Positions 12,034 through 55,916 of a DNA stretch of 64,000 nt are shown piece by piece (the stretch's first letter is position 1; each line of letters opens with the position of its first letter). The position numbers were made by a program, and so were the translations under genes. The DNA comes from Spirochaetia bacterium. Lineage in GTDB: Bacteria; Spirochaetota; Spirochaetia; SZUA-6; Bin103. Location of the stretch: NCBI GenBank assembly GCA_965203905.1, contig CBDBDQ010000005.1:7200001-7264000 (forward strand). The letters are read 5' to 3'. A model generated the notes under the pieces. It saw nothing but the letters and a program-made list of their open reading frames with translations, had not been told where the DNA came from and did no database searches.

Positions 12034-12127
12034 GCGCGGAGCATGCCCGAAAGCAACGGCTTGGGGTAGGCGCCAGTAGGCGCCTTGACGGTATGTCCCG
12101 GCGCTTCATACTTGCAGTCGAGGAGTA

Positions 12128-13327
12128 ATGCCCGTGGCTACGTTGAGTCAGGTACAGATCGACAGTTTCCGTGACCGTGGCTTCCTGGTGGTCTCCGACC
12201 TGCTGAGCACCGATGAAGTGAACCGCATCGCCGAGGCGGCGCGCGAGGAGTTCGAGACCCACCGTTACATGGCAGCCAAGGCACGCTTCCCGGCCCCGAC
12301 CAAGTATGTCCTGTCGGAGGACAGCCTGCGGCTGCCTGACATCCGCCTGGTGGTCGATCATCCGCAACTCGTGTCCGCCGTCAGCGAGCTGCTGGCGGAC
12401 GAGGTGTGCCTGTCGGCGTTCGTGATCTACTCTATGCCGCCCGGCACCCAGGGCACCGGCGGGGACTATCAGCGCAGCCACGAGTCGGCGCACTGCGACT
12501 ACAAGCCGTTCCGTCCGGTCGGCTCGTCGCTGCGCTGGCTGTTCGCGATCGTGCCGCTGGTGGACTACACGGAGGAAGTGGGACCGCTGCTGGTCTCCCC
12601 CGGCTCGCACAAGATCCCGGAGCTGACGCGCCGCGGCCGCGTGACCCACGTGCGCCGGGCGCGCGCCGACGAGTTGCCCGCTTTCGTCGACACCCGCCTG
12701 CGGCGCGGCCAGGTGGCGTTCATGGACATGTTCACCTGGCATCAGGCGTACGGCAACCGCTCCGACCGCCTCCGCTACGGCGTGTACAACAAGTACCGCG
12801 TGCGCAGCGCCCCGCCGGGCTGCGGTCCCTACCTATACCGCGACAGCTCCGCCGCGCTGTTCGGCACCACCGGCGGCGGGCTGCTGGCCAACCACGCCGC
12901 GGGCCGGATCGCGGAGACCCGGCTGCTGGTCGAGGCGGACGAGCGGTTCCTGGTCATCGACGGATGCGTTCCCGGAGGTCCGGCGCAGCCTGGTCCGAAA
13001 CGCGTGGGCAGCGATGAGGACAACGTCATCGGCCAGCTCCTGGAGGCGGCGGAGCGCCAGCTCGGCGGACAGCCGCCGTGGGTGAGCTACGTGGGCGACT
13101 ACCCCGTGGGCGCCGACGGCAGCGACCGCTGCCGGGTTTACGCCTGTCCCCGCGACGCGCTGCCGGGCGCCGCCGTGGCTGCTCCGGGCGCGCGCTGGCT
13201 TAGCGCCGATCAACTCCCAGGCGAGACCGGCAACTCCTGTCTCTCGACCGCGGCCGAGTCGTGGCTGCACGACCCGGTGCTGCGTGGCATCGGGCAATCG
13301 TACGCCCAGGCCCACGCACCCGCGTAG
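12128..13327 (+). CDS. PhyH-family Fe(II)/2OG dioxygenase with C-terminal NUDIX-like extension
   Basis: FRDRGFLVV, HCD, GPLLVSPGSH, TWH; extra ~140 aa C-terminal domain. Confidence 0.75.
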   Translation: MPVATLSQVQIDSFRDRGFLVVSDLLSTDEVNRIAEAAREEFETHRYMAAKARFPAPTKYVLSEDSLRLPDIRLVVDHPQLVSAVSELLADEVCLSAFVIYSMPPGTQGTGGDYQRSHESAHCDYKPFRPVGSSLRWLFAIVPLVDYTEEVGPLLVSPGSHKIPELTRRGRVTHVRRARADELPAFVDTRLRRGQVAFMDMFTWHQAYGNRSDRLRYGVYNKYRVRSAPPGCGPYLYRDSSAALFGTTGGGLLANHAAGRIAETRLLVEADERFLVIDGCVPGGPAQPGPKRVGSDEDNVIGQLLEAAERQLGGQPPWVSYVGDYPVGADGSDRCRVYACPRDALPGAAVAAPGARWLSADQLPGETGNSCLSTAAESWLHDPVLRGIGQSYAQAHAPA

Positions 13328-21256: not shown

Positions 21257-22120
21257 TTACAACTTCAGGTACGCGCCGGGGCGCCGATTCGTCGCTGCCG
21301 GCACGGCGCACCCGGAGTAGCGCGGCTGCAGCGGGGTCAGGCGTTCGAGCGCCTCCTGCGGCGCCCCCGCGGTGAATGCCCGGTGGCTGGCCGAGTAGGA
21401 GGCGCGCATACGCTCCGAGAGCTCGTCCCAGCGCGGCAGGTACCACATCGTCAGCACCGTGCGCCGCTGGCCGGTGCGATTGGCCCGAGGTGCGTGCAGC
21501 ACGCGCGAGTCGCCGATCAAAAGGTCTCCGGCCGTAATCGGCACGTCGATCTGACCCGCGGCATCGGCGTACTTGATCGACGTGTCGGGATCCTCGTAGC
21601 GGATATCGGTGCCGTGCCCCTCGTACTCGTGCTGCGGATACCGGCGCCGGTGCGAGCCCGGAATGACCCGCAGGCAGCCGTTCGCCGGCGACGTGTCCAC
21701 CAGGTAGTACATGAGAAACACCTTGACCGGGAGAGGATCGGCGCTCTCCGGTTCGTCCCAGTACATCCAGTCCTGGTGCCAGTACGCCGACTTGGTGCGG
21801 GGCTCACGCGAGATGATGAAACCTGACAGGTAGCGGACCGAGTCGAACCCGAGGTCCTCCAGCGCGGCCAGCGCCCGCGGCCACGAGATGAGATCGGCGA
21901 ATACCGCGGGCGCGAACGGAATCGGCTGCCAGGCTCCCTGTCCACCCTGGACGCGCTTCTCCTCCTCGGTGAGCTGGTCGAGCAACGCCGACGTTTCCCG
22001 CCGGAGCGAGTCGAGCATCGGGGCATCGAGAACGTCGGGGACGATGCAGAACCCGTCGCTGACGAGCTGCTCGCGTGCGCGCGCCAGGCGGACAGTGCCT
22101 GTCGCGGTTGCCGGCGCCAC
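21257..22120 (-). CDS. PhyH-family Fe(II)/2OG dioxygenase
   Basis: DGFCIVPDVL, WHQD, NGCLRVIPGSH, GDLLIGDSRVLH, RRTV. Confidence 0.88.
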   Translation of the reverse strand: MAPATATGTVRLARAREQLVSDGFCIVPDVLDAPMLDSLRRETSALLDQLTEEEKRVQGGQGAWQPIPFAPAVFADLISWPRALAALEDLGFDSVRYLSGFIISREPRTKSAYWHQDWMYWDEPESADPLPVKVFLMYYLVDTSPANGCLRVIPGSHRRRYPQHEYEGHGTDIRYEDPDTSIKYADAAGQIDVPITAGDLLIGDSRVLHAPRANRTGQRRTVLTMWYLPRWDELSERMRASYSASHRAFTAGAPQEALERLTPLQPRYSGCAVPAATNRRPGAYLKL

Positions 22121-22130
22121 GGCTTCGGCG

Positions 22131-23123
22131 CTAAGTAGCTTGGCCCTTCAGGCGCCGGCGCCGGGCGCGCATCTCCACCTCTGATTCGGACGAGCCGTCG
22201 AAGAAGCTGCCGAACCACTTGTCGAGCGGGATGATCTCGCCGCCGTAGTTGCAGTCGAAGTACTTGTGGTGGAGGTAGTGGAAGTATCCGCCGTTCTTGA
22301 TCTCGTGCTCATCGCCGACCTCGATCTTGAAGAAGCCGGTATGGCCGGGAACCGGTGATACCCCGGCGTGCATGAGGTGGAACACCGCGTGCAGCGGATG
22401 CGACGGAATGACCCAGTGGATCAACACACCGCTGAAATACAGCAGGTGCTCGATGGGATGCATCGACAGCCCCGACCACGGCCCGGGATTGACGTTCTTG
22501 TGATGCAGGTAGTGGGCCGACTTGTACAGCGGCTTCCAGTGAGTGAGCCGGTGCACCCAGTAGAAGTGGAAGTTGCGCAACAGGGGGATGGCCAGCATCA
22601 GCAGCACGAAATAGACCGGGCTGGTTGCGAAGGCGATCGTCGGCAGCACGCCGTTGGCGTAGAGCCACAGCGTGACCGCTTCGTACGCGGTCCAGATCAG
22701 CCCGCCGCTGACCAGGGTCCAGAACACGTTGTCCCGGGTCTGGTTGCGGAACATGAAGGTGCGATTGTTGGAACTCGGCCAACGGTTGCTGAACTTGTGG
22801 CGAACGTCCTGGGCGCGCTGGATGTACAGCCGCAGGTGCACCGAACCGTAGAGCACGATGATCAGCACCGCGTTGCGGGCATAGATCTCGGCGATCCAGC
22901 CCACCCCGAAGGTACCGGTACGGCTCAGGTCCGGCGTGAACCAGAGCCAGCAGACCACCGCGAGCACGGTATAGAAGAGGTTGTACGGCCAGTAGAATGC
23001 AACCAGCGATTTCAGGGCCGGCCACAGCCGGAGCGGCCAGGAGAACAGCGCCGAAGGCGCCGGCAGCGGGTCGGGCAGCCACTCACCGCGCCGGTCGCGG
23101 TGCCGGAGATCAGCTTCAGCCAT
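22131..23123 (-). CDS. Sterol desaturase / fatty acid hydroxylase family membrane protein
   Basis: His boxes HFYWVHRLTH, HYLHH, HPIEH, FHYLHH; hydrophobic segments. Confidence 0.88.
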   Translation of the reverse strand: MAEADLRHRDRRGEWLPDPLPAPSALFSWPLRLWPALKSLVAFYWPYNLFYTVLAVVCWLWFTPDLSRTGTFGVGWIAEIYARNAVLIIVLYGSVHLRLYIQRAQDVRHKFSNRWPSSNNRTFMFRNQTRDNVFWTLVSGGLIWTAYEAVTLWLYANGVLPTIAFATSPVYFVLLMLAIPLLRNFHFYWVHRLTHWKPLYKSAHYLHHKNVNPGPWSGLSMHPIEHLLYFSGVLIHWVIPSHPLHAVFHLMHAGVSPVPGHTGFFKIEVGDEHEIKNGGYFHYLHHKYFDCNYGGEIIPLDKWFGSFFDGSSESEVEMRARRRRLKGQAT

Positions 23124-23718: not shown

Positions 23719-25236
23719 ATGGATACTGTGGCTACCGCGACCCCTACCGGCTTCTCCTCCTCGCTCTCCGGGCTCCCCGACCAGGTGCTGCTGGCGCACA
23801 CCAGGTCCCTCGTCCTGCACGAGCAGGCGCTGCAGCTCGCCGTCCTCGACCACCTGCGCGAGATCCACGCCCGCCACCTGCACCTGCGCCTCGGCTTCTC
23901 CAGCCTGTTCGACTACGCGGTGCGCGAACTGGGCTACAGCGAAGGCGCCGCCTGGCGCCGTATCAAAGCCATGCGCCTGTGCTCCGATACCGCCGGGACA
24001 CGCGAGCGGCTGCAGGACGGCTCGCTCTCCCTGAGCGCGGCGGCGCAGTTGCAGAACACCTTCGATCTCCTGCAGCGCACGGCGACCGCCGTCGCGGACC
24101 CCGGCTCGCCACCCGCGGCACCGGAGCTGCTGCCGCGCGCCACGGGGGCGACGCCGGAGACGGGGGCTTCGGGGGCCGCGGCAGCGGCGCCGGCGCGAGC
24201 GGTGCCGGCGCTGGACGCGGCGCAGCGGCAGGAGCTGGTCGCGCAGGCGAGCGGCAAGAGCACCCGCGAGGTGAAGCAGTTGTTGGCCGCGGTGGCTCCC
24301 GAGCTGGCGTGGCCGGCCGATCGCCTGCGGGCGCTGGGCGACGGCCGCTGCGAGCTGAAGGTGGTGATCGACTCTGCCTGTCAGTGTGGGATCGAGCAGC
24401 TGCGGGCACTGCTGTCGCACGTGGACCCGCACCTGACGCTGGGGCAGTTGGTGGAGCGGCTGGTGCAGGACGGCCTGCAGCGCTACGACCCGGGGCGACC
24501 GCCGCGCGGTCGCAGAGGTGGGCGCCGGGAGGCAAGCGCGGGCCAGGCGCCGGAGACGAAGCCGCAGGAAGCGCCGGCGGGCGGAGCGACTTCGCCGGCG
24601 AAGCGGGGCACGCAAAAGAAACCCGGAGCGCCGCCGCCGGAGGGCACGAGCGCCGGTGGCAGCACCTCGGCGGTGGCAGCGCTGTCCGCGCCGCCTTCGG
24701 GGCGCGAGACTTGCGGCGGCAGCACCCCGGTGAGTGCCAAGCCAGCGGCGGCGGCGCCCGGCACCACTACTTCGGCGGCGAAGGTGGCGGCTGGTTGCGG
24801 GTCCCGCGCCACCGTACCGCCGTTGCCAGCAGACCGGAGCTTGCCGACCCCGCGGGAAGCAGCGGATCGCGGTCGCAACGCTCCTTCGCCAGCGAAGCGG
24901 GCAGGGGCGGCGCAGCTCGACGGCCGTTCGCAGCCGCAGCCAGAGGCAGCCGGCCCCTCCGGAGGCAGCGCGCAGCCGCCCCACCGGGCGCGCCGATCCC
25001 GCTACATCCCGGTACCAGTGCGGCGCGAGGTGTGGCGACGCGACGGCGGCTGCTGCAGTTACGTCGATCCGCACAGCGGACGGCGCTGCGGCTCCCGCTT
25101 CCTGCTGGAGCTTGACCACATCGTTCCCTTCGCCCTCGGCGGCGGTGCGGAGCCCGGGAACTTGCGCCTTCGCTGTCGAGCCCACCACCGCTTCCGGCAT
25201 CGGGAGGACGCGCCGTCGCCAGACGGGGCCACGTGA
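23719..25236 (+). CDS. HNH endonuclease with helical N-terminal domain (DUF222/13E12-like architecture) and low-complexity linker
   Basis: GFSSLFDYAVRELGYSEGAAWRRI N-terminus; RYIPVPVRREVWRRDGGCC...RCGS...ELDHIVPFALGG...NLRLRCRAHH C-terminus. Confidence 0.85.
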   Translation: MDTVATATPTGFSSSLSGLPDQVLLAHTRSLVLHEQALQLAVLDHLREIHARHLHLRLGFSSLFDYAVRELGYSEGAAWRRIKAMRLCSDTAGTRERLQDGSLSLSAAAQLQNTFDLLQRTATAVADPGSPPAAPELLPRATGATPETGASGAAAAAPARAVPALDAAQRQELVAQASGKSTREVKQLLAAVAPELAWPADRLRALGDGRCELKVVIDSACQCGIEQLRALLSHVDPHLTLGQLVERLVQDGLQRYDPGRPPRGRRGGRREASAGQAPETKPQEAPAGGATSPAKRGTQKKPGAPPPEGTSAGGSTSAVAALSAPPSGRETCGGSTPVSAKPAAAAPGTTTSAAKVAAGCGSRATVPPLPADRSLPTPREAADRGRNAPSPAKRAGAAQLDGRSQPQPEAAGPSGGSAQPPHRARRSRYIPVPVRREVWRRDGGCCSYVDPHSGRRCGSRFLLELDHIVPFALGGGAEPGNLRLRCRAHHRFRHREDAPSPDGAT

Positions 25237-26963: not shown

Positions 26964-27761
26964 TCAGGCACGCCAAACGAGTTCATCGAGCGGAATGCCG
27001 GGGTCGACGCGGTGGGCCGGCGGCAGCGGCTCTGCCACCGGCACGGTCCCGCAGAGCCAGTTCCAGGTGTGCTCACCCCGGCGCCGGTCGCGATAGGACT
27101 CGACCTCCGTCACGTACGGGTGCCTCTCGGGGTACTGGAACGCGGGAACGGCGGAAGACGCGGTCACCCAGTCCCGCTTCGGCAGCGTGTTCCGGTAGTA
27201 GGAGAACTTGATCATGCCGCGCCGCGTCGCGTTCAGCTTCGGTCCCGCCTTGTGCCAGATCCCATACCGGGTCAGGACAACGGTCCCTGCCGGAACGGTA
27301 AGCGAAAGTTGCCCCAGAATGTCCCCGTAGTGGGCTATCGCCTCGCGATCGACCACCCGTTGGTGGGAGCCGGGCAGAACCATCGTCGGACCATCTTCGA
27401 GTTCCACCGCCTGCGGATAGTAGTAGCACTGCAGATGGGTGATGCCGTAGCCCTGGTCGGTGAGCCCATCGGAATGCCACGTCTGCCCACCGTGTGGGGC
27501 CTCGTAGAGATGGTGGTGTGCGCTTGCCGGCACCAGGAGGTTGGCGCCCAGCAGCGAACGAGCCACGCCACCGACCTGCGCTTGCAGAAGCACCTCGCGG
27601 CGGAACGCCTCGCTGCGCACGAAGTCGGTCAGGTGGCCGGCGGGCACCGATCCGCATGCCCTGTTAAGCGCGCTGTCGACGACGCCCTCCAGCATGACGT
27701 AACCGTCGTGGATGAAACGCATCACCTGTTCATCGTTCAAGGTCGGCTCGATATCCCTCAT
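26964..27761 (-). CDS. PhyH-family dioxygenase (PTLND subfamily, copy A)
   Basis: MRDIEPTLNDEQV..GYVMLEGVV, QTWHSDG, YYYPQ, GPTMVLPGSH, YGIWH; ATG 1 nt after upstream stop. Confidence 0.85.
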   Translation of the reverse strand: MRDIEPTLNDEQVMRFIHDGYVMLEGVVDSALNRACGSVPAGHLTDFVRSEAFRREVLLQAQVGGVARSLLGANLLVPASAHHHLYEAPHGGQTWHSDGLTDQGYGITHLQCYYYPQAVELEDGPTMVLPGSHQRVVDREAIAHYGDILGQLSLTVPAGTVVLTRYGIWHKAGPKLNATRRGMIKFSYYRNTLPKRDWVTASSAVPAFQYPERHPYVTEVESYRDRRRGEHTWNWLCGTVPVAEPLPPAHRVDPGIPLDELVWRA

Positions 27762-27762
27762 G

Positions 27763-28185
27763 TCACCCGTACCTTTCCAGTATGAACTCGAACCCGAGGT
27801 AGGCGTTATCGAGATCGGAAAAACGGTACACTTCGGGCCGCGGAAACTGCACGATCCGCCACCCGTCGCGGACCGCGTCGAGCACCGATGTGTAGGGGAT
27901 GTCCTGCGACGGCAGCACCGGTTCGTCGGACGCGGCGGGATCGTAGAGCGTCCACGCGCTGAGCGAAGAGCGCGGGTTGGTCGACTTCGAATAGAGGTAG
28001 AGAAGCGTCTGGCGGGGCGCGTGTTCCGCCTCCAGGACGCTGACGCCCTGACGCAGATCCGCCTCGGTGAGCACGCCGGTTCGCAGCTTTTGCAGGCAAC
28101 CGTCGAGCCAATCCCTGACTGCCGACCTGGTCCGAAACTGGCGGCCACCGTGCACTGCTCCATCGGAGTGACCGTGCTGACTCAC
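27763..28185 (-). CDS. Small uncharacterised protein (PY.S.L.A.RDGWR..QFP family, copy A)
   Basis: Clear homolog of 41855..42235; start position uncertain. Confidence 0.75.
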   Translation of the reverse strand: MSQHGHSDGAVHGGRQFRTRSAVRDWLDGCLQKLRTGVLTEADLRQGVSVLEAEHAPRQTLLYLYSKSTNPRSSLSAWTLYDPAASDEPVLPSQDIPYTSVLDAVRDGWRIVQFPRPEVYRFSDLDNAYLGFEFILERYG

Positions 28186-28290: not shown

Positions 28291-28557
28291 ATGGACAAAA
28301 GAACGATTCCCGCGGGCGAATTCAAGCAGAAGTGTCTCGCCCTTATCGACCAGGTCGCCGCGACCGGCACCGCGATCGTCATCAGCAAGTATGGAAAGCC
28401 CGTGGCCCGCTTGATGCCGCTGGAGGAACCGGAGCAGACCGAGCAGCGGATTCTGGATGCACTCCGCTCCGGCAGCGGCGGCATGCTCGTGGATGAGGAA
28501 ACGTTCCTGGCGCCCACGGCGGATATCGCCGGCTGGCCCTCGGACGCCGCACCATGA
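28291..28557 (+). CDS. Phd/YefM antitoxin
   Basis: IPAGEFKQKCLALIDQV...IVISKYGKPVARLMP. Confidence 0.9.
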   Translation: MDKRTIPAGEFKQKCLALIDQVAATGTAIVISKYGKPVARLMPLEEPEQTEQRILDALRSGSGGMLVDEETFLAPTADIAGWPSDAAP

Positions 28558-28940
28558 TCACCCTCGACACCCATGTCGCCGTATGGTGGACCCAGACGCC
28601 CGAGCACCTCAGCCCGGCGGCGGCACAGAGCATTCACCGCGCGGACCGGATCCTGGTTCCCGCGATCGTGTTCTGGGAGGTCGCGCTGCTGGTACGCAAG
28701 GAGCGCCTGCGGCTGAACAACGATCAGCCGGCCGGGGCATGGGCGCAGCAGGTGCTGGCAATCCCGCGCGTCCAGGAAGTTCCACTCACCCAGCGGCTCG
28801 CGGTTGCCGCCGACGCGGCCGCCATGCACGCCGATCCCGCGGACCGGTTCATCGCGGTGACCGCGCATGACCTGAGTGCACCGCTGGTCACCAAGGATCA
28901 CCTGATGCGAAACCTTCCCTGGCTCCCGACGGTGTGGTGA
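28554..28940 (+). CDS. vapC: VapC PIN-domain toxin
   Basis: ITLDTH, FWEV, HADPADRFI, LVTKD; ATGA overlap with antitoxin. Confidence 0.9.
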   Translation: MITLDTHVAVWWTQTPEHLSPAAAQSIHRADRILVPAIVFWEVALLVRKERLRLNNDQPAGAWAQQVLAIPRVQEVPLTQRLAVAADAAAMHADPADRFIAVTAHDLSAPLVTKDHLMRNLPWLPTVW

Positions 28941-29306
28941 TTGCATCGTAATCCGCGCGCCCTCAGGCGATTCCTCGCCCGGTCACGGTCTGGGAGATGC
29001 AGCGACCGCCGCGGCTACGGGTCGGCGCTGGCCAGATGATTCGCCGTCACCGCGGTTGACCGCAGCAACCGCGCCAACTACATTACGCTCTTTCCCGAGT
29101 CGCAGCCCGCTGCGGCGCGCCGTTTCATTCGATACAAGTGCCACGTTTCCCATGTTTCGCAAGATGAGTTACCACGAGCCGGCACGGTCACTCCGTGACA
29201 CGGAAGACCATGAAACCGTCGCATGGCGCAGTGCATGGTGACCGCCACTTTCGGATCAGACCAGCATCGGGCCGGCTCGGGCCGGCCGTGCACTAACTGC
29301 GGCTAG

Positions 29307-39563: not shown

Positions 39564-40925
39564 CTACGAGCCCGCGTACGCGTCCAACTCGCCCTCCTGA
39601 AACGAGACCTCCAGCCACGGGTCGCGGGTCTCCCGGCGAAACTCCAGCAACCTCGCGCGCATCTTCGTCGCCACCGCCGCCAACGAAGGCTCGGCGATCA
39701 GGTTGCGGGTCTCGTCGGGGTCGGCCTCCATGTCGAACAGCGCCTCGCGGTCCTGCTGCAGAAAGCCCGCGCGCGGCCGCCGGCCCAGCATGTCGATCTC
39801 CTCGTCTCGCACCGCGGTCCAGGTGAGCGAGCGGAACAGGTCGCTCGGCAGCGGCGTCTCGAGCCGGTGCGCCAGGTTGCGCACGTACTTGTAGCGGCGT
39901 CCGCGCAGCGCCCGGTAGGGGTAGTAGTTGGTGACCTCGTGGAAGCAGTGGGAGAAGAAGGTTTCCTCCCAGATTCCATCTCCGGGATGGGGAGTGTCAT
40001 CTTCCAGGATCGGCAGCAGCGAACGGCCCGGCAGTGCCACGTCTCCCTGCGGCTGCTCCGCCCCGCACCACTCCAGGATGGTGGGCATGAAGTCGACCCA
40101 GCTCATCAGCGCCCGGCTGTGGATGCCGCCCCGGCGCTGCTGCGGATCGCACACGATCAGCGGGCAGCGATGGCCGCTGTCGAAGCTGGAGGCCTTGGCG
40201 CCGGGGAACGGCATGGCGTGGTCGGTGGTGACGAAGATCAGCGTCTCCCCGGCACGGCCCGACGCTTCCAGCGCCGCCACCACCGCGCCCACCACCTGGT
40301 CGTAGCGCGACACGCTCTCGTAGTACTCCGCCAGGTCGCGGCGCACCCGCGGCACGTCGGGCAGGAACCCGGGCACGATCACTTCCTCGGGGTCGTAGGG
40401 CGCGGGCGTGATGCCGGCGTGCATCCGCTCGTTGCCGAAGCCACGCCCGGCGCGATGCGGATACGCCGAGCCGACGTGCAGGTAGAAGGGCTGCTTCGCG
40501 TGCCCGCTCAGGAACGCCGTCACCTTCGCCGCCATGTCGTCCGGACTGCGGAGGTCGACCTGCGGCTCGTAGTCGAACGGATAGACGCTCGCCGGCTCCA
40601 CGTGCTTCTTGCCGATGCAGGCGGTCGCGTACCCGTTGGCCCGCAGGATCGCAGGCGTCGACTGCATCCACTCGTGGGTGCGGAACCCGTGGATGCCGTG
40701 GCAGTGCCCGTACTGGCCGTGGGTGTGGCTGTGCTGGCCGGTCAGGATGCAGGCGCGGCTCACCGCGCACGACGGGCTGGTGCAGAACGCGTAGTCGAAC
40801 ACCGTCCCGCGCGCCGCGAGCGCGTCGATGTGCGGCGTCCTGATCACCTCGTTGCCGTAGCAGCGCGCCAGCCGGCTCCAGTCGTCGGCGATGACGAACA
40901 GCACGCTGCGGCGGCGGTCACTCAC
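39564..40925 (-). CDS. Formylglycine-dependent sulfatase (sulfamidase-like)
   Basis: IADD, SPSCAVSR, LTG, GKKH, TDHAMPFPGAK, E.LFD...DPDE. Confidence 0.88.
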   Translation of the reverse strand: MSDRRRSVLFVIADDWSRLARCYGNEVIRTPHIDALAARGTVFDYAFCTSPSCAVSRACILTGQHSHTHGQYGHCHGIHGFRTHEWMQSTPAILRANGYATACIGKKHVEPASVYPFDYEPQVDLRSPDDMAAKVTAFLSGHAKQPFYLHVGSAYPHRAGRGFGNERMHAGITPAPYDPEEVIVPGFLPDVPRVRRDLAEYYESVSRYDQVVGAVVAALEASGRAGETLIFVTTDHAMPFPGAKASSFDSGHRCPLIVCDPQQRRGGIHSRALMSWVDFMPTILEWCGAEQPQGDVALPGRSLLPILEDDTPHPGDGIWEETFFSHCFHEVTNYYPYRALRGRRYKYVRNLAHRLETPLPSDLFRSLTWTAVRDEEIDMLGRRPRAGFLQQDREALFDMEADPDETRNLIAEPSLAAVATKMRARLLEFRRETRDPWLEVSFQEGELDAYAGS

Positions 40926-41854: not shown

Positions 41855-42235
41855 TTACCCCCATCTCTCAAGGATGAACTCGCAGCCCAGGCCGTAGGTG
41901 CGCGACTCATCGAGCATCAAGGCCATGTTGGGAAACTGAATCACCCGCCAGCCGTCGCGAATCGCCTCCAGCGGCGACTGGTAGGGCCAGTCCTCCACCT
42001 CGGGCGGCCCCTCCAGGATCTCGCCGTCGCGAACCAGCGCCATGCCGTGCACCGGCGACCCCAGCGACGAGCCCTGTGTCTGCAGGTACAGCAGGTCCTG
42101 CCGCTTCGCACCGCCGCGCGCCAGCTCTTCCAGCGTGTTCCTGAGCTTCTCTTCAGTCAGCTCGCCGTTTCTGAACTGCTCCAGGCAATCTCGGATGACG
42201 CCCCGGCCGGCGGCCGCTACTGGACCCGCTGCCAT
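41855..42235 (-). CDS. Small uncharacterised protein (PY.S.L.A.RDGWR..QFP family, copy B)
   Basis: C-terminal half of track ORF 41855..42598; homologous to 27763..28185. Confidence 0.75.
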   Translation of the reverse strand: MAAGPVAAAGRGVIRDCLEQFRNGELTEEKLRNTLEELARGGAKRQDLLYLQTQGSSLGSPVHGMALVRDGEILEGPPEVEDWPYQSPLEAIRDGWRVIQFPNMALMLDESRTYGLGCEFILERWG

Positions 42236-42615
42236 CCTTCCGCCTCCTGCTTGGTGGACCCCGACGGCGGCGGGCCGAAGGCGTAGAAGTAGCACAGCTC
42301 CTCGGCGCCGTCGTTGAACGACTGGTGGGTGACCCCCGCCGGGATGTACACCGTCATTCCCTGCGCCACCCGGAACTCCTCGCCGTCCATCACCAGCCGG
42401 CCCGAGCCGCTGACCACGTAGTAGATCTCCTCGGCGTCGGGATGGATGTCGGCCACGGTTTCGTGTCCCGGCGCCAGCCAGAACAGCCCGGCAGAGAGGT
42501 GCTCGGCCCCGCAGTGCTCCCTGCTCACCAGCAGGCTCACCTTGCGCGACAGGTTGGGGGCCTGCCAGATCGGCTGCTCGCCCTGGTCGATGACCCATTC
42601 CGGATGCTTGTTCAT
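42217..42615 (-). CDS. Cupin domain protein
   Basis: DIHPDAEEIYYVVSGSG, YIPAGVTH; GGAGGT RBS. Confidence 0.85.
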   Translation of the reverse strand: MNKHPEWVIDQGEQPIWQAPNLSRKVSLLVSREHCGAEHLSAGLFWLAPGHETVADIHPDAEEIYYVVSGSGRLVMDGEEFRVAQGMTVYIPAGVTHQSFNDGAEELCYFYAFGPPPSGSTKQEAEGWQRVQ

Positions 42616-42638
42616 GACACCTCCCAGTGTGTGCCCGG

Positions 42639-43391
42639 TCATACTAATACGAATCCTCCGTTGACGTGGAACGTGGCGCCGGTGACGTAGGTGGCACGGT
42701 CGGACACCAGGTACAGCACCGCGTCCGCCAGCTCGCGCGGCGTGCCCTGCCGGTCGAGGAACGAGATCTTGGCGAAGTCGCGCTTCACCTCCGGCCCGAA
42801 GCTGTCGGTGATCGGCGTGTCGATGCTGCCGGGCGCGATGGCGTTGGCCAGGATGCCGTCGGCGGCGAAGTTGCGCGCCACGTACTTCATCAGGGCGAGC
42901 ATCCCCGCCTTGCTGGCGCCGTAGCCGGCCTGGGCCGTGACGCTGCCGAGCACGGCGCCGGCGGAGGAGATGTAGACGATGCGGCCGAACCGCTGCGCGC
43001 GCATGTGCGGCAGCACCGCCCGCGTGCACAGGAAGGCGCCGGTGAGGTTGACCCCCAGCACCTGGTTCCAGCGCTCCAGGGTGGTCTCCTCCCACGGCGT
43101 GGTGGGACAGATGCCGGCGTTGTTCACCAGGATGTCCACCGTGCCGAAGCGCTCCACCGTGGCCGCGACCATTGCCTCCACCTGTTTCTCCAGGGCCACG
43201 TCGACAGCCACGAACAGGCCCTGCGTCCGGGTCCGCGACTGCACCAGGGAGACTGTCCGCTCGCCGCCGGCCGCGTCCAGGTCGGCCACCACCACGCCCG
43301 CGGCACCCGCTTCCGCCAGCACCTCCGCGGTGGCCCGGCCGATGCCGGACGCCGCCCCCGTCACGATCGCTACCTTGCCCGATATGTCCAC
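42639..43391 (-). CDS. SDR-family oxidoreductase (FabG-like)
   Basis: TGAASGIG, NNAG, YGASK, NAIAPG, VNGG. Confidence 0.92.
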   Translation of the reverse strand: MDISGKVAIVTGAASGIGRATAEVLAEAGAAGVVVADLDAAGGERTVSLVQSRTRTQGLFVAVDVALEKQVEAMVAATVERFGTVDILVNNAGICPTTPWEETTLERWNQVLGVNLTGAFLCTRAVLPHMRAQRFGRIVYISSAGAVLGSVTAQAGYGASKAGMLALMKYVARNFAADGILANAIAPGSIDTPITDSFGPEVKRDFAKISFLDRQGTPRELADAVLYLVSDRATYVTGATFHVNGGFVLV

Positions 43392-43448
43392 CCCGTCCCC
43401 CTTGTGGCGCTCTACGACTCGACCATGTAACGGACCCCCGGACTTCAG

Positions 43449-43480
43449 GCGGGGCGCCGGCCCCGTGACCGGCGCCCCGC
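43449..43480. terminator. GC-rich stem-loop downstream of the SBP gene
   Basis: GCGGGGCGCCGG-N8-CCGGCGCCCCGC, 12-bp inverted repeat, no U-tract. Confidence 0.5.
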
Positions 43481-43489
43481 TCTAGTGAC

Positions 43490-45463
43490 CTACGAATCGA
43501 AGAACCACTGCTCCGCGCTGAAGGTGATGGCGGCGCCCGAGCCGCCGTGCGGGATGTTCGCCAGCCGGGTGGACGCCAGCATCGGCCAGGTCTCGTCCTC
43601 CACCACGTTGATGAACCACAGGTTGTCCTTTATCAGCCCGAACATCTCGTCGACGATCGCCGTGTCTTCCGGCGTGCCGGGCTTCACCAGCATCATCTCC
43701 TCGCGCAGCTTGTAGAGCCGCTGCACGCCGGCGGGCGGTTCCTCGCCCTCGGCGCCGCCGGTGGTGTACCACTTCTGCCAGGCGTTGCCCCAGCCGCGGC
43801 TGCCGGGCAGCAGGTCGTCGAACACCGGGATCGACCACATCACCCCGTGGTTGCGGTTCACCGTGGCCTTGATCTCGCTGGCGCTCTTCCGCTGTCCCCA
43901 GAGGCCGCCGTCGATCGTCTTGGTGGTGGCCTGCAGCCCCACCTCGCGCAGGTGCTCGACGATCAGCTCCGCCACCAGCGGCTCGTCGCCCAGGTAGGAG
44001 GAACTCTCGAACGGAATCTGGAACACGTTGCCGTCGGGTCCCAGGCGCCAGCCGTCGGCGTCGCGCTGGTCCAGGCCCACGGCGTCCAGCAGCTCATTGG
44101 CCCGCTCCTGGTCGTACTCGGCCGGCGCAAACACCTTCGGCTTGCCGACCAGCCCGATATACACCGAGTCGATGATCTCGTCGCGGTTGATTGCCAGGTT
44201 CAGCGCCTGCCGGAAGCGGAGCTCGCTCACCAGTTGACGCCACACCGGATCGGCATGGGTGTGGTTGAGCCACACCGTCGCATAGTGGAAGTGCACCGGC
44301 GTGAGCAGGGTGCGGTAGCCGCCCTTGCTCTCGTTCTCCTTGTACAGCGGCACGTCCTTGAGCACCGAACCGTCCAGGAAGAAGTCGAGGTCGCCCGCCA
44401 TCATGCGAATCGCGTTGTTCTGGGCGTTGGAGACGAACACCATCTGGTGCTTGTCGATGTAGGGAAGCTGCTGGCCCTCGGTGTCCACCTTGAAGTAGTA
44501 GGGGTTGCGTTCCAGCATCGACACCGTCTCCTGCACGTCGGTGACGATCCAGGGGTTGAGCACCGGGAAGCCGACCCGCTCCGGCGGGAACTGCTCCCAG
44601 CGGATGATGTCCTTGGCGTGGAACAGGTTCCACCACTCGCCCGCGGCCAGCGACCGCTCCTGGATCATGTCCTCCAGGTCGGCCAGCGGGGTGTAGTCGG
44701 CGTGGAACTGCGTCAGGTAGTGCTTGGGCTTGATCAGCTCCTCGTAGCCGCGCCAGCCGTCGATGGCAAGCTGCACCAGGAAGCGCCCGTAGGGCTGGGT
44801 GAAGCTGATCCTGAAGGTGTGGTCGTCGATCACTTCGAATGTCATCGGCTGGCCGTCGGCGGCGCCGCTGTCGCGCAGCCAGCGCGGAAAGCTGGGCGTC
44901 AGCTTCTCGTTGAGCAGCACGTCCTCGTAGGCGAACAGCACGTCATCCATCGTCACCGGCACGCCGTCGGACCACTTCAGCCCCTTGCGCAGACGCAGCG
45001 TGAAGACCCGGTCGCCATCGCTCACCTCGAAGCTCTCCAGCACGTTGCCCGTCATGTTGCCCAGCTCTTCGTGAATGATGTTTCCCGACGAGGTGAGCAG
45101 CGACTCGTTCTGGTTGTGGAACAGGATGCCGTCCCAGAACGGCGAGAAGTGGCCGTGCCTGAGCGTGCCGCCGTACTTCCCGACCTGCCAGTCCAGGTTG
45201 TAGGTGGGTATCAGGGTCCCCGGTCCCACCACCAGCGGCTCGTCGGGCAGCCGCTCGTCCACCGGCGGCAACTCACCGCTCGCCACCAGGGCATCGAGCA
45301 TCGGCGACTGGCGGTACATCCCCATCGCCATCGCCTCGGTGTCACTTGCGGCCTCCGCACCCGCACCCTCGTCGGCGGCTCCGGCGAACAGCGCCGCGGG
45401 AACCAGCAACGCTGCCAGCAACGCCACGACTACCAATTGCGAACGTCTTGCGTCCTTCAACAC
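43490..45463 (-). CDS. ABC transporter substrate-binding protein, family 5
   Basis: Signal peptide, LPPVDERLP, GKYGG, KWSDGVPVT, ERNPYYFKVD..QLPYID. Confidence 0.9.
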   Translation of the reverse strand: MLKDARRSQLVVVALLAALLVPAALFAGAADEGAGAEAASDTEAMAMGMYRQSPMLDALVASGELPPVDERLPDEPLVVGPGTLIPTYNLDWQVGKYGGTLRHGHFSPFWDGILFHNQNESLLTSSGNIIHEELGNMTGNVLESFEVSDGDRVFTLRLRKGLKWSDGVPVTMDDVLFAYEDVLLNEKLTPSFPRWLRDSGAADGQPMTFEVIDDHTFRISFTQPYGRFLVQLAIDGWRGYEELIKPKHYLTQFHADYTPLADLEDMIQERSLAAGEWWNLFHAKDIIRWEQFPPERVGFPVLNPWIVTDVQETVSMLERNPYYFKVDTEGQQLPYIDKHQMVFVSNAQNNAIRMMAGDLDFFLDGSVLKDVPLYKENESKGGYRTLLTPVHFHYATVWLNHTHADPVWRQLVSELRFRQALNLAINRDEIIDSVYIGLVGKPKVFAPAEYDQERANELLDAVGLDQRDADGWRLGPDGNVFQIPFESSSYLGDEPLVAELIVEHLREVGLQATTKTIDGGLWGQRKSASEIKATVNRNHGVMWSIPVFDDLLPGSRGWGNAWQKWYTTGGAEGEEPPAGVQRLYKLREEMMLVKPGTPEDTAIVDEMFGLIKDNLWFINVVEDETWPMLASTRLANIPHGGSGAAITFSAEQWFFDS

Positions 45464-45517
45464 TTGTGTAACCTCCCATCGAGACCGTCCAATCACGGTC
45501 ACGGTCCGTATCGAAAC

Positions 45518-46648
45518 CTACTGAGAGTAGGGGTCGGCCGCGTCGCGCAGCCCGTCCCCCAGAAAGTTGAACATCAACACGGTGATTATCACGAACAGCA
45601 CCGGTATCAGCAACCAGGCGCTGTGCGCTATCGCCTGCACGTCCTGCGCATCCTGCAGCAACACGCCCCAGCTTACGGCCGGCGGCAGCATGCCGATGCC
45701 GATGAAGCTGAGCGCCGTCTCGCCGAGGATCATGTTCGGTATCGCAAGGGTCAGCGAGACGATGATGTAGCTCAGGAACGACGGCACCAGGTGCTTGGCG
45801 ATGATCACACCCTCGCCGGTGCCCGCGAGTTTCGCCGCCGTGACGAAGTCCTCGCCGCGCACTGAAAGAAACTTGCCCCGCACCACGCGCGCCAGGCTGG
45901 TCCAGCCGATGATCGACAGGATCATCGTGATCGCGAAGTAGGTCTTCGGTATCGACCAGTTCTGCGGCAGCGCGGCGGCCAGCACCATCCACAAGGGAAT
46001 CGTCGGGATCGAGATCAGCACGTCGATGATGCGTTGCACGACGTTGTCGACCAGGCCGCCGAAGTAGCCGGAGATACCACCCAGCAGCACGCCCAGGAAC
46101 AGGCTCAGCGCCACGCCCACCAGGCCGATGGTGAGCGAGATGCGGGCGCCATACACGACCCGTGAGAACAGGTCCCTTCCCAGGTGGTCGGTGCCGAACA
46201 GGAACACCTGGCCGCCGGGTGCCCCGAACAGGTGCAGATCGCCGCGAATCAGGCCCCAGAACTTGTACTCCGAGCCGCGTACGAAGAGTCGGATCGGGTA
46301 ACGCTCCGTGTGCTCCTCGACGAAGTGGCGGCGGAACGTCTCCGGGTCCCGCTCGCGCCGGTAGCCGTACACGAAGGGCCGCTGCAACCCGCCTTCCGGA
46401 GCGACGAAATGAATGCTGTGGGGCGGCGCCTGCAGCAGCTCCGCGAACCGCTCGCGCGCGGTGTAGGGTGCGATGAACTCCGAGAAAATCGCCAGCAGGT
46501 AGAGCACGCCGAGCACCGGCGCGGCGATCACCGCGAGCTTGTGCCGGCGGAAGCTCCACCAGATCAACTGCCACTGCGAGGCGGAGAAACGGCGGTCGGT
46601 GTCGGCCGGGCTCTCCGTCGCGGCAGGCGCGGCGGCGCGTTGCGTCAC
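45518..46648 (-). CDS. ABC transporter permease (DppC/OppC-like)
   Basis: [36 protein letters not shown]; start overlaps stop of upstream permease. Confidence 0.9.
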   Translation of the reverse strand: MTQRAAAPAATESPADTDRRFSASQWQLIWWSFRRHKLAVIAAPVLGVLYLLAIFSEFIAPYTARERFAELLQAPPHSIHFVAPEGGLQRPFVYGYRRERDPETFRRHFVEEHTERYPIRLFVRGSEYKFWGLIRGDLHLFGAPGGQVFLFGTDHLGRDLFSRVVYGARISLTIGLVGVALSLFLGVLLGGISGYFGGLVDNVVQRIIDVLISIPTIPLWMVLAAALPQNWSIPKTYFAITMILSIIGWTSLARVVRGKFLSVRGEDFVTAAKLAGTGEGVIIAKHLVPSFLSYIIVSLTLAIPNMILGETALSFIGIGMLPPAVSWGVLLQDAQDVQAIAHSAWLLIPVLFVIITVLMFNFLGDGLRDAADPYSQ

Positions 46649-47646
46649 GTCTCGGACACCTGTTCGAAGCGGATGCGGGGATCGATCCAGGCCAGCATAA
46701 CGTCCGATATCAGGGTGCCGGTCACCACCAGCGTGCTGAGGATGATCACGAAGCTCCCGGCCAGGTACATGTCCTGGAACAGCAAGGCGCGCAGCAGCAC
46801 CGGTCCGACGGTGGGAATGTCCAGCACCAGCGAGATCAGCAGCTCGCCCGAGAACAGGAACGGCAGCAGCCAGCCGATGGTGCTGATGAGCGGGTTGACC
46901 GCCAGCCGCACCGGGTACTTGAACAGCAGGCGGCTTTCCTTGAGTCCCTTGGCACGGGCGGTGATCACGTACTGCTTGCTCAGCTCGTCGAGCAGCGTGC
47001 CGCGCATGATGCGGATCAGCGCCCCGGTGCCCGAGATCCCCAGCAGGATCATCGGCACCCACAGGTGGGCGAGCAGATCGAAGAACTTGCCCCAGCTCCA
47101 GGGCGCTCCCAGGTATTCGGAGGAGTGCAGCCCCGACACGTTGATCCCGAACTGCGAGAACAGGGTCCACACCACCAGCAGCGCCAGCAGGAATCCGGGC
47201 GTGGCGATGCCGATGAAACCGAGGAAGGTGAAGAAGTAGTCCGCGATCGAGTACTGGTGGGTGGCCGAGTAGATGCCGATCGGAATCGCCACCACCCAGA
47301 TGAACAGCACCGACAGCATGGTGATCACCACGGTGAACCAGACGCGCTGGCCGATCACCTCGCTCACCGGCCGGTTCCAGTTGAACGACCAGCCCAGGTC
47401 GCCGCGCAGGATGATGTTGCTGATCCACAACAGGTACTGGGAGTGCAGCGGCCGGTCCAGCCCGTACTGCTGGGTGAGGCGCGCGATCTCGTCGTCCGCC
47501 AGCTCGGTGCCGGAGGCGCGCAGGGTCTCGATCAGCGTAGTGAGGAAGTCGCCGGGGGGAAGCTGAATGAGAAGGAACGAAATGAGGGAGATGAACAGCA
47601 GCAGGGGTATGAGAATGGCGATACGGTTGGCTATGTAGCGCAGCAT
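46645..47646 (-). CDS. ABC transporter permease (DppB/OppB-like)
   Basis: QLPPGD, YGLD, YVITARAKGL, IDPRIR. Confidence 0.92.
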   Translation of the reverse strand: MLRYIANRIAILIPLLLFISLISFLLIQLPPGDFLTTLIETLRASGTELADDEIARLTQQYGLDRPLHSQYLLWISNIILRGDLGWSFNWNRPVSEVIGQRVWFTVVITMLSVLFIWVVAIPIGIYSATHQYSIADYFFTFLGFIGIATPGFLLALLVVWTLFSQFGINVSGLHSSEYLGAPWSWGKFFDLLAHLWVPMILLGISGTGALIRIMRGTLLDELSKQYVITARAKGLKESRLLFKYPVRLAVNPLISTIGWLLPFLFSGELLISLVLDIPTVGPVLLRALLFQDMYLAGSFVIILSTLVVTGTLISDVMLAWIDPRIRFEQVSET

Positions 47647-54651: not shown

Positions 54652-54935
54652 TGCACTATGGGTGAACCGAACACCATGATGTGTGGAGCACGGCGACAGC
54701 CCTCCGCGGCCTCCAAGAGCCAAGGGCGCCCCGCGAGGCCTTGTCGATATGGGCGGACCGCGGCTCAGCCATAATCGATCAGCCTAGCTGGGCTTGGATC
54801 GCTGTTCGCTGTTGCAACAGAGGCACAGGTGCACAGGCGCCGTAGGGCCGTGTTAGGGACGTGCTGCCGCACTTGACGTCGAGTGCCATAGAATGGCAGG
54901 CTTGACCTCCAGCTACCTCATAGGAGTAAACCCAC

Positions 54936-55916
54936 ATGAGTGCGCTCAATCAGCAGCAGGTTGACCAGTTTCGGGAACAGGGATTCCTGAAGGTCGAAAG
55001 AGTGCTGGATCCGGCCACCCACCTCGATCCGGTGATCGAGGAATATACAGGGGTACTCGACTCCCTGGCCAAGGAGCTGTTCGCCGCCGGTGAGATATCC
55101 TCCACCTACGACGAGCTTCCGTTCGGCGAGCGGGTAACGCGAGTCTACGCCGAGAGTGGCCGCAATCACGCGCAGTACTTCGACTTCTCGCTGCCGTTCG
55201 CGAACGTCCGCGAGGACACGCCGTTCTGGTGCGGGCCGGCGGTGCTGAACGCCTTCACCGCGGAACCCCTGCTGGACGTGGTGGAAGCGCTCATCGGCCC
55301 GGAGATCTATTCCAACCCGGTGCAGCACGTGCGCATCAAGCCGCCGGAGAGCAGGCTGCCCAAGGATGGCAACGGCAAGCCGATCATCGGGGCCACCCAG
55401 TGGCATCAGGATCACGGCGTGGTGACCCCCGAGGCCGACGAGACCAACATGCTGACCGTCTGGTTCTCGCTCTACGACACGCCGGTCGAAGCGGGACCGC
55501 TGAAGGTCGTTCCACGCAGCCACACCGACGGCCTGCGCACCCACTGCCCCAACACCGGCCGCGCGATTCCGGAGAAGCTGTTCGAAGTCGACGCCACGGT
55601 GCCCGTTCCCACCGCGCGCGGCGACGTGGTGTGTCTGCACCGGCAGACGGTGCACGGTTCGCTGGCCAACGTCGGCAACGAGATCCGCTGGAGCTTCGAC
55701 CTGCGCTACAACCCGATCGGCCAGCACACCGGGCGCGGGGCGTTCCCCGGCTTCGTGGCCCGGAGCCGCAAGGCGCCGCACCGGGAACTGCGCGACGCCG
55801 ACGAGTGGCGTCGAAGCTGGGAAGAGTGCCGCCGGCGGATGGCCCACATCAACCAGGGGGGGGAGACCGACGTGCCCTTCGGCCGCTGGACCGACGGCCA
55901 TCCCGACTGCGCCTGA
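54936..55916 (+). CDS. PhyH-family Fe(II)/2OG dioxygenase
   Basis: FREQGFL, WHQD, GPLKVVPRSH, TVHGS, RWSFDLRY; AGGAG RBS. Confidence 0.9.
   Translation: MSALNQQQVDQFREQGFLKVERVLDPATHLDPVIEEYTGVLDSLAKELFAAGEISSTYDELPFGERVTRVYAESGRNHAQYFDFSLPFANVREDTPFWCGPAVLNAFTAEPLLDVVEALIGPEIYSNPVQHVRIKPPESRLPKDGNGKPIIGATQWHQDHGVVTPEADETNMLTVWFSLYDTPVEAGPLKVVPRSHTDGLRTHCPNTGRAIPEKLFEVDATVPVPTARGDVVCLHRQTVHGSLANVGNEIRWSFDLRYNPIGQHTGRGAFPGFVARSRKAPHRELRDADEWRRSWEECRRRMAHINQGGETDVPFGRWTDGHPDCA

Follow-up and report, generated by a model that had tools for sequence, protein, structure and literature searches.

A small protein of no named family paired with a clade of PhyH-type oxygenases points to a two-protein form of the enzyme

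PhyH-type oxygenases usually act alone. The question raised by the present locus is why, in a 64,000-nucleotide (nt) stretch of a Spirochaetia bacterium genome (assembly GCA_965203905.1, contig CBDBDQ010000005.1, positions 7,200,001 to 7,264,000; hereafter the window), two genes of this class are each directly preceded by a small gene of no named family. Our analyses confirm the gene pair, an arrangement that recurs in several phyla of uncultured bacteria, and point to a heteromeric Fe(II)/2-oxoglutarate (2OG) oxygenase with an unrelated small subunit, that is, a two-protein form of the PhyH class. The two pairs, designated locus A and locus B, consist of the following genes:

27763..28185, reverse strand: small partner protein A, 140 amino acids (aa), with a conserved core beginning at residue 58 and an optional N-terminal helical hairpin
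26964..27761, reverse strand: PhyH-family Fe(II)/2OG oxygenase A, 265 aa, ATG start, 40.4 bits against PF05721
41855..42235, reverse strand: small partner protein B, 126 aa
40945..41847, reverse strand: PhyH-family Fe(II)/2OG oxygenase B, 300 aa, 32.7 bits against PF05721, from the clade of oxygenase A and of another subtype

The initial annotation had described two loci with a small open reading frame (ORF) directly upstream of a PhyH gene, and the coordinates agree with this, the gap being 1 nt at locus A and 7 nt at locus B. These are the only two small-protein genes in the window. The small proteins share 39% identity over 122 aa (E-value 2e-23) and the oxygenases 37% over 257 aa. The relatedness read earlier from shared motifs of the small proteins was thus upheld, whereas the motif CL...R.G.LTE..LR is not a general trait, as it falls within the optional N-terminal hairpin, which is missing from three of seven paralogues. 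Six signature patterns, five proposed earlier (PTLND, YYPQ, GPT.VLPGSH, WH.DG and P.RDW) and one added here (R.M.K), were all present in both paired PhyH proteins, and none occurred in the three other PhyH proteins of the window (12089-13327, 21257-22147 and 54930-55916), which, as had also been noted, have no small gene.

An iterated profile search detected seven small genes in the whole genome, all of them directly upstream of a PhyH gene on the same strand. As the PhyH ORFs, 213 in number, make up only about 3% of the genes (gene total estimated from 8 Mb), this adjacency is not due to chance. In the five pairs outside the window the stop and start codons overlap by 4, 4, 8, 8 and 29 nt, with the start chosen by the analyst. 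All seven paired oxygenases belong to one clade (FastTree, support 100) of 14 among 203 trimmed sequences; an untrimmed first tree had given 10 of 209. Besides the seven paired members, the clade of this genome contains six with long C-terminal tails and one solo gene. The long-tailed branch (G000:C5 370714-372555, 1637809-1639539, 2665472-2667676, 5324180-5325664, 132974-134428 and 6363963-6366845, with further members L177-L183) carries C-terminal repeats in place of the partner gene and has lost the interface motif described below. HEAT repeats were confirmed with Pfam in L009, and the other long-tailed members were judged from their length and by eye.

Clustered at 90%, the small-protein family comprises 510 proteins; at 50% identity it has 429 representatives. 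The profile search and adjacency scoring proposed at the outset showed that the homologues are mostly PhyH-adjacent. The GTDB search returned at least 534 confirmed matches, and in the best 80 of these, ranked by one paralogue throughout, a clade PhyH gene followed the small gene in 80 of 80 loci. By their record titles, these loci belong to Spirochaetia, Latescibacterota, Gemmatimonadota, Chloroflexota, Poribacteria, Opitutales and Planctomycetota. Among 43 metagenome loci matched with ORF A, 39 scored as adjacent, and so did 37 of the 39 in which at least 300 nt downstream were present; the misses were L096 (clade PhyH at 216 nt) and L105 (no PhyH in 1,002 nt). At L128 the PhyH gene (L128:3387-4037) is decayed and its small gene has unusual substitutions, possibly a case of joint pseudogenisation. 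Likewise, a census of all 21 small genes of five other genomes, 5 of which overlap with the best 80 GTDB loci, placed 19 directly before a clade PhyH gene, while the remaining two have one within 1 kb, preceded by an unrelated PhyH at L145 and by a short ORF at L157. The latter ORF (L157:1861-2271, forward strand), of 136 aa and by eye resembling glyoxalase/VOC proteins, separates the small gene from the clade PhyH gene.

Within the same family, 17 of 18 genomes carry the small gene; it was found in 0 of 12 genomes from other families of the order and was not found among 300 sampled genomes of the phylum. The 28 loci examined in relatives contain 29 small genes, and all 29 adjoin some PhyH gene, 25 of them preceding a clade PhyH and four an unrelated one. 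The latter, a classical PhyH gene, lies 4 nt downstream of the small gene in four related genomes (L213, L215, L216 and L217), with a second small gene 1-14 kb off. The insert of the L216 protein (L216:588-1562, reverse strand) carries a tandem five-residue repeat expansion, of which L213 has fewer copies. A stop/start overlap is present in 83 of 111 complete pairs. In the reciprocal count, all five clade PhyH genes of G301 were paired, and the 17 of G302 were divided into seven paired, seven long and three solo. Natural fusions carry the small domain C-terminally on two other PhyH lineages, P0170 (a cluster of 8, named from Planctomycetota) and P0281-P0283, and may be fusions to an upstream neighbour. 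P0280, P0284 and P0285 look by eye like read-through or frameshift products and were not counted. The earlier proposal of a dedicated PhyH subfamily was therefore right as to the pairing and too narrow otherwise: the subfamily extends beyond the PTLND type and its tie to the small protein is not exclusive, given that 7 of the 14 clade PhyHs of this genome are unpaired and that the small gene also precedes (4 of 29) or is fused to PhyHs of other lineages.

Distance matrices of the small proteins and their PhyH partners were correlated, with r 0.95 over 63 pairs (reached in 0 of 2000 permutations) and r 0.88 over the seven paralogues (reached in 16 of 5040). Of the 18 well-supported splits in the small-protein tree, 14 recurred in the PhyH tree. 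The two phylogenies are congruent, which bears out the view of an old, co-inherited pair. For inter-protein covariation the 165 pairs, with an effective number of 59 at 80% identity, gave too little power, and the top pairs were invariant columns. Linkage by itself yields congruent trees, PhyH genes abound in these genomes (213 ORFs here; see also the available part of PMC3909097) and solo clade members exist, so the small gene could be a linked cassette passenger with no functional tie to the oxygenase. We regard this as very improbable, since the pairing spans seven phyla and paralogues just 18-53% identical, the stop/start overlap is retained, and a complex is predicted together with concordant motif loss.

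The predicted complex consisted of four copies of small protein A (residues 18-140) and one oxygenase A, and contacts were scored between the oxygenase and the small copies. In this check run, which follows the earlier suggestion to model the pair, the complex was predicted with a score of 0.80 (runs 0.80, 0.79 and 0.81), against 0.01 for the best of three controls. In the calibration, which applies only roughly to a multi-copy job, 116 of 157 solved complexes came up to the mark, as did 2 of 215 mismatched pairs. The runs agreed in at least 79% of contacts, with 108-115 contacts and a partner pLDDT (predicted local distance difference test) of at least 87. In the model, oxygenase A contacts two small copies via residues 89-94, 121-127, 134-153, 173-176 and 215-231, and segments 134-153 and 215-231 form most of the predicted interface. 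A sequence search found no similar solved complex. The physical association of the two proteins is, in our judgement, highly probable.

The predicted interface was then compared across 36 clade members from three genomes (19 paired, 13 long HEAT-type and 4 solo), with counts taken from columns aligned with a hidden Markov model. The interface columns conserved in at least 70% of 165 paired oxygenases (R135, 142, 143, Y145, I148, G150, Q151 and Y223) were matched at 0.57 in paired, 0.06 in long HEAT-type and 0.19 in solo members, compared with 0.77, 0.69 and 0.67, respectively, for 56 conserved non-interface columns. The aromatic/aliphatic pair at positions 145/148 was present in 19/19 paired, 0/13 HEAT-type and 2/4 solo sequences. 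An insert count by regular expression was discarded, as it misread 8 of 165 pairs as well as 4 of the 19 test rows (length 41). If the model holds, the interface motif would forecast from sequence which clade members require the partner.

Both oxygenases exceed the PF05721 gathering cut-off of 22 bits. H96, D98 and H170, forming the H-x-D...H iron triad, as well as R181 and K185 are invariant in 63/63 aligned clade members, and for this reason the oxygenase looks catalytically intact from its sequence; R181 is presumably the 2OG-binding arginine after the distal histidine, a role assigned from family knowledge. The nearest solved relatives by profile are SnoK (5EPA, best E-value 8e-10), EctD (ectoine hydroxylase), SptF and PHYHD1, all known as single-gene proteins. 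They share with the clade the PhyH domain, the triad and an arginine 11 residues past the distal histidine, whereas the clade has in addition the invariant K185, a fixed-length insert and the upstream partner gene. As these relatives are distant, no substrate can be transferred to the clade.

The small gene and the PhyH gene would together encode one heteromeric enzyme, in which the PhyH chain would be an ordinary-looking Fe(II)/2OG oxygenase and the small protein a non-catalytic subunit, oligomeric via its 85-residue beta-rich core. According to the model, each oxygenase would dock at the junction of two adjacent small subunits through three elements: the loop (89-94) that precedes the H-x-D motif, the clade-specific insert (134-153 of A) and the C-terminal segment (215-231). 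The partner would hold these elements beside the metal site, so that the enzyme is stabilised and its substrate pocket completed or gated. In related oxygenases the corresponding insert contributes to the substrate site. Translational coupling would maintain the ratio of the two chains. Neighbouring catabolic genes (sulfatase, peptide-type ABC transporter, and enolase- or aldolase-like genes) and the invariant K185 faintly suggest that the substrate is a small anionic organic compound that is catabolised. We give a probability of roughly 0.55 to this reading, in which the heteromer is stable and the small oligomer, by bracing the insert and the metal-site loops, stabilises the enzyme or completes its substrate pocket. 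Of the three roles offered by the initial annotation, that of accessory subunit fits the predicted complex and the interface test best.

Translational coupling and the fact that 0 of 13 HEAT-type clade members have an adjacent small gene could also indicate a transient folding or metal-loading chaperone, for which the HEAT repeats substitute in the fused branch; auxiliary chains aiding expression are known for TlxJ, as far as the available part of PMC13311259 goes. The predicted interface is large and subtype-specific, more akin to that of a stable complex, and the small protein has no conserved metal-binding residues, which makes a chaperone quite improbable.

The small protein was the subject of further searches. 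It has no match in Pfam or NCBIfam, and Foldseek with both small-protein models gave nothing at an E-value of 0.001, in agreement with the earlier statement that no named family could be recognised. The sole sequence matches in the PDB were 14-3-3 proteins (E-values 0.4-0.7), which were dismissed as chance. The wide structure search with the full-length model returned matches to the helical hairpin only. By language-model features the nearest named cluster was DUF4177 (PF13783; score 0.78-0.80), which has a similar helix-G-W-strand motif; this lead was not confirmed, as there was no Pfam match and the profile-profile probability was 2.4% over 11 columns against a 3-sequence alignment.

Conservation in the small protein is highest at A104, W109, P115, L136 and G108, and the polar residues Q59 (98%), Y98 (98%), D107 (95%) and E133 (88%) are also conserved. 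These few polar residues, the predicted contact near the metal-site loops and the strict two-gene unit without a third conserved gene would suit an enzyme or binding protein that handles the substrate or unstable product of the oxygenase while bound to it. We consider this role improbable, and with it the product-processing enzyme considered earlier: no His, Cys, Lys, Arg or Ser is invariant in the aligned small proteins, conserved polar residues are few and the structure searches recognise no enzyme fold.

A weak whole-domain structural match and a similar size may link the small protein with GFRP, the KCTD1 C-terminal domain and the KCTD12/KCTD16 H1 domains; in the present complex model, too, a partner docks on neighbouring subunits. 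The small protein might then be a bacterial counterpart of the GFRP/KCTD ring fold, an allosteric regulator whose closed ring gathers several oxygenases and, in response to a metabolite bound between its subunits, turns their activity on or off, the enzyme being active alone and the partner acting as sensor. GFRP was absent among the 50 matches listed in the wide structure search of the core, and its Pfam model (PF06399) matched none of the small genes in 5 genomes at an E-value of 1. We hold this reading to be unlikely. If it were true, the small protein would regulate PhyH-type oxygenases by feedback, as a subunit without a counterpart in the literature searched; it would also represent a prokaryotic root of a fold that, to our knowledge, is otherwise confined to eukaryotes, and a portable module that several PhyH lineages have gained by re-coupling or fusion.

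Several observations weigh against the stable heteromer. The complex score is a model confidence, obtained with the analyst's own alignments and in a multi-copy job unlike the calibration. The motif was lost about twice independently, as the 13 HEAT-type members (with four outgroup-labelled rows from the studied genome) form one branch and the two motif-less solo members another. Loops vary more than core strands anyway, and the conserved columns were defined from paired sequences. The solo genes L169 and L174 keep the motif with no adjacent partner; perhaps they use one encoded elsewhere. The unrelated PhyHs after the small gene (L213, L215-L217) and the fused PhyHs, which belong outside the clade, have no motif by eye, and the model does not explain these pairings. 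L105 has no PhyH within 1,002 nt, L128 was counted as adjacent with only a decayed PhyH fragment, and the congruence of the trees is explicable by linkage alone.

The neighbourhood comparison found no third conserved gene across phyla, the recurring neighbours being lineage-specific catabolic genes, elsewhere including the enolase- and aldolase-like ones (recognised by eye). Locus A is a stand-alone pair flanked by a convergent class III aminotransferase gene and a divergent Phd/PIN pair, while locus B sits in a run of ABC transporter, short-chain dehydrogenase, cupin, small, PhyH and sulfatase genes. The remaining features are:

39564..40925, reverse strand: sulfatase, directly 3' of oxygenase B; a neighbouring gene that is not conserved with the module
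42217..47646, reverse strand: cupin, short-chain dehydrogenase and peptide-type ABC transporter genes, upstream of and co-oriented with locus B; context, not conserved
28127..28184, reverse strand: shortened (internally deleted) copy of an 85-bp dispersed repeat, in frame after the GTG of small ORF A, net 54 nt
29176-29259, forward strand: further copy of the 85-bp repeat in the window
28291-28940, forward strand: Phd/YefM antitoxin and PIN toxin pair, divergent from locus A
23719-25236, forward strand: 505-aa protein of low complexity whose C-terminus weakly matches HNH (E-value 5e-4)

The dispersed repeat has 65 matches in the genome, 55 of them near full length. In small ORF A, the 18 codons after the GTG start are its in-frame 54-bp insert, which is absent in the G308 orthologue; as this orthologue has the same start, the GTG is regarded as native. 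On a single contig of a related strain (run X6, depth about 4), 5 nt are missing at the end of small ORF A (window 27768-27771), which shifts the junction with the oxygenase start. Two RNA-labelled sequencing runs contained just 4% of the words, in short contigs.

No paper describing the pair was found in the literature searched, a term search of PMC13361646 gave no match, and an unnamed-cluster entry is possible in supplementary catalogues (e.g., PMC10849945, PMC13617357) or in the supplements of PMC3909097. The expansion of PhyH genes as such is known: in the available part of the latter source they exceed 1.9% of genes in Poribacteria, mostly without function. With 213 ORFs in the present genome, PhyH-type oxygenases are hugely expanded in these bacteria. 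If the clade needs an unrelated small subunit, an oxygenase expressed alone would give an inactive or misleading protein; the cognate partner and the predicted interface residues make the clade enzymes directly testable. Such a heteromer would be a new architecture in 2OG oxygenase biochemistry and would give a function to the family of 429 representatives. A 2OG oxygenase with a non-homologous structural subunit, the protein-disulfide-isomerase, is collagen prolyl 4-hydroxylase; it differs from the present pair in being eukaryotic, in its oxygenase family and in its large thioredoxin-fold partner. Closer in kind are the heterodimeric non-haem iron oxygenases TlxI/TlxJ and TlxA/TlxC, in which, according to the available part of PMC12141560, a catalytic Fe/2OG chain depends on an auxiliary, non-catalytic one encoded in the same cluster, this auxiliary chain being a dead oxygenase homologue and the dimer mimicking a homodimer. 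The present pair resembles TlxI/TlxJ in combining an Fe/2OG oxygenase with a non-catalytic chain, whose binding is here predicted by the model. It is no member of that type, because its partner shows no homology to oxygenases: no PhyH match was found for the small protein, its predicted fold is a different and unrelated small one, and two subunits of it are predicted to bind each oxygenase.
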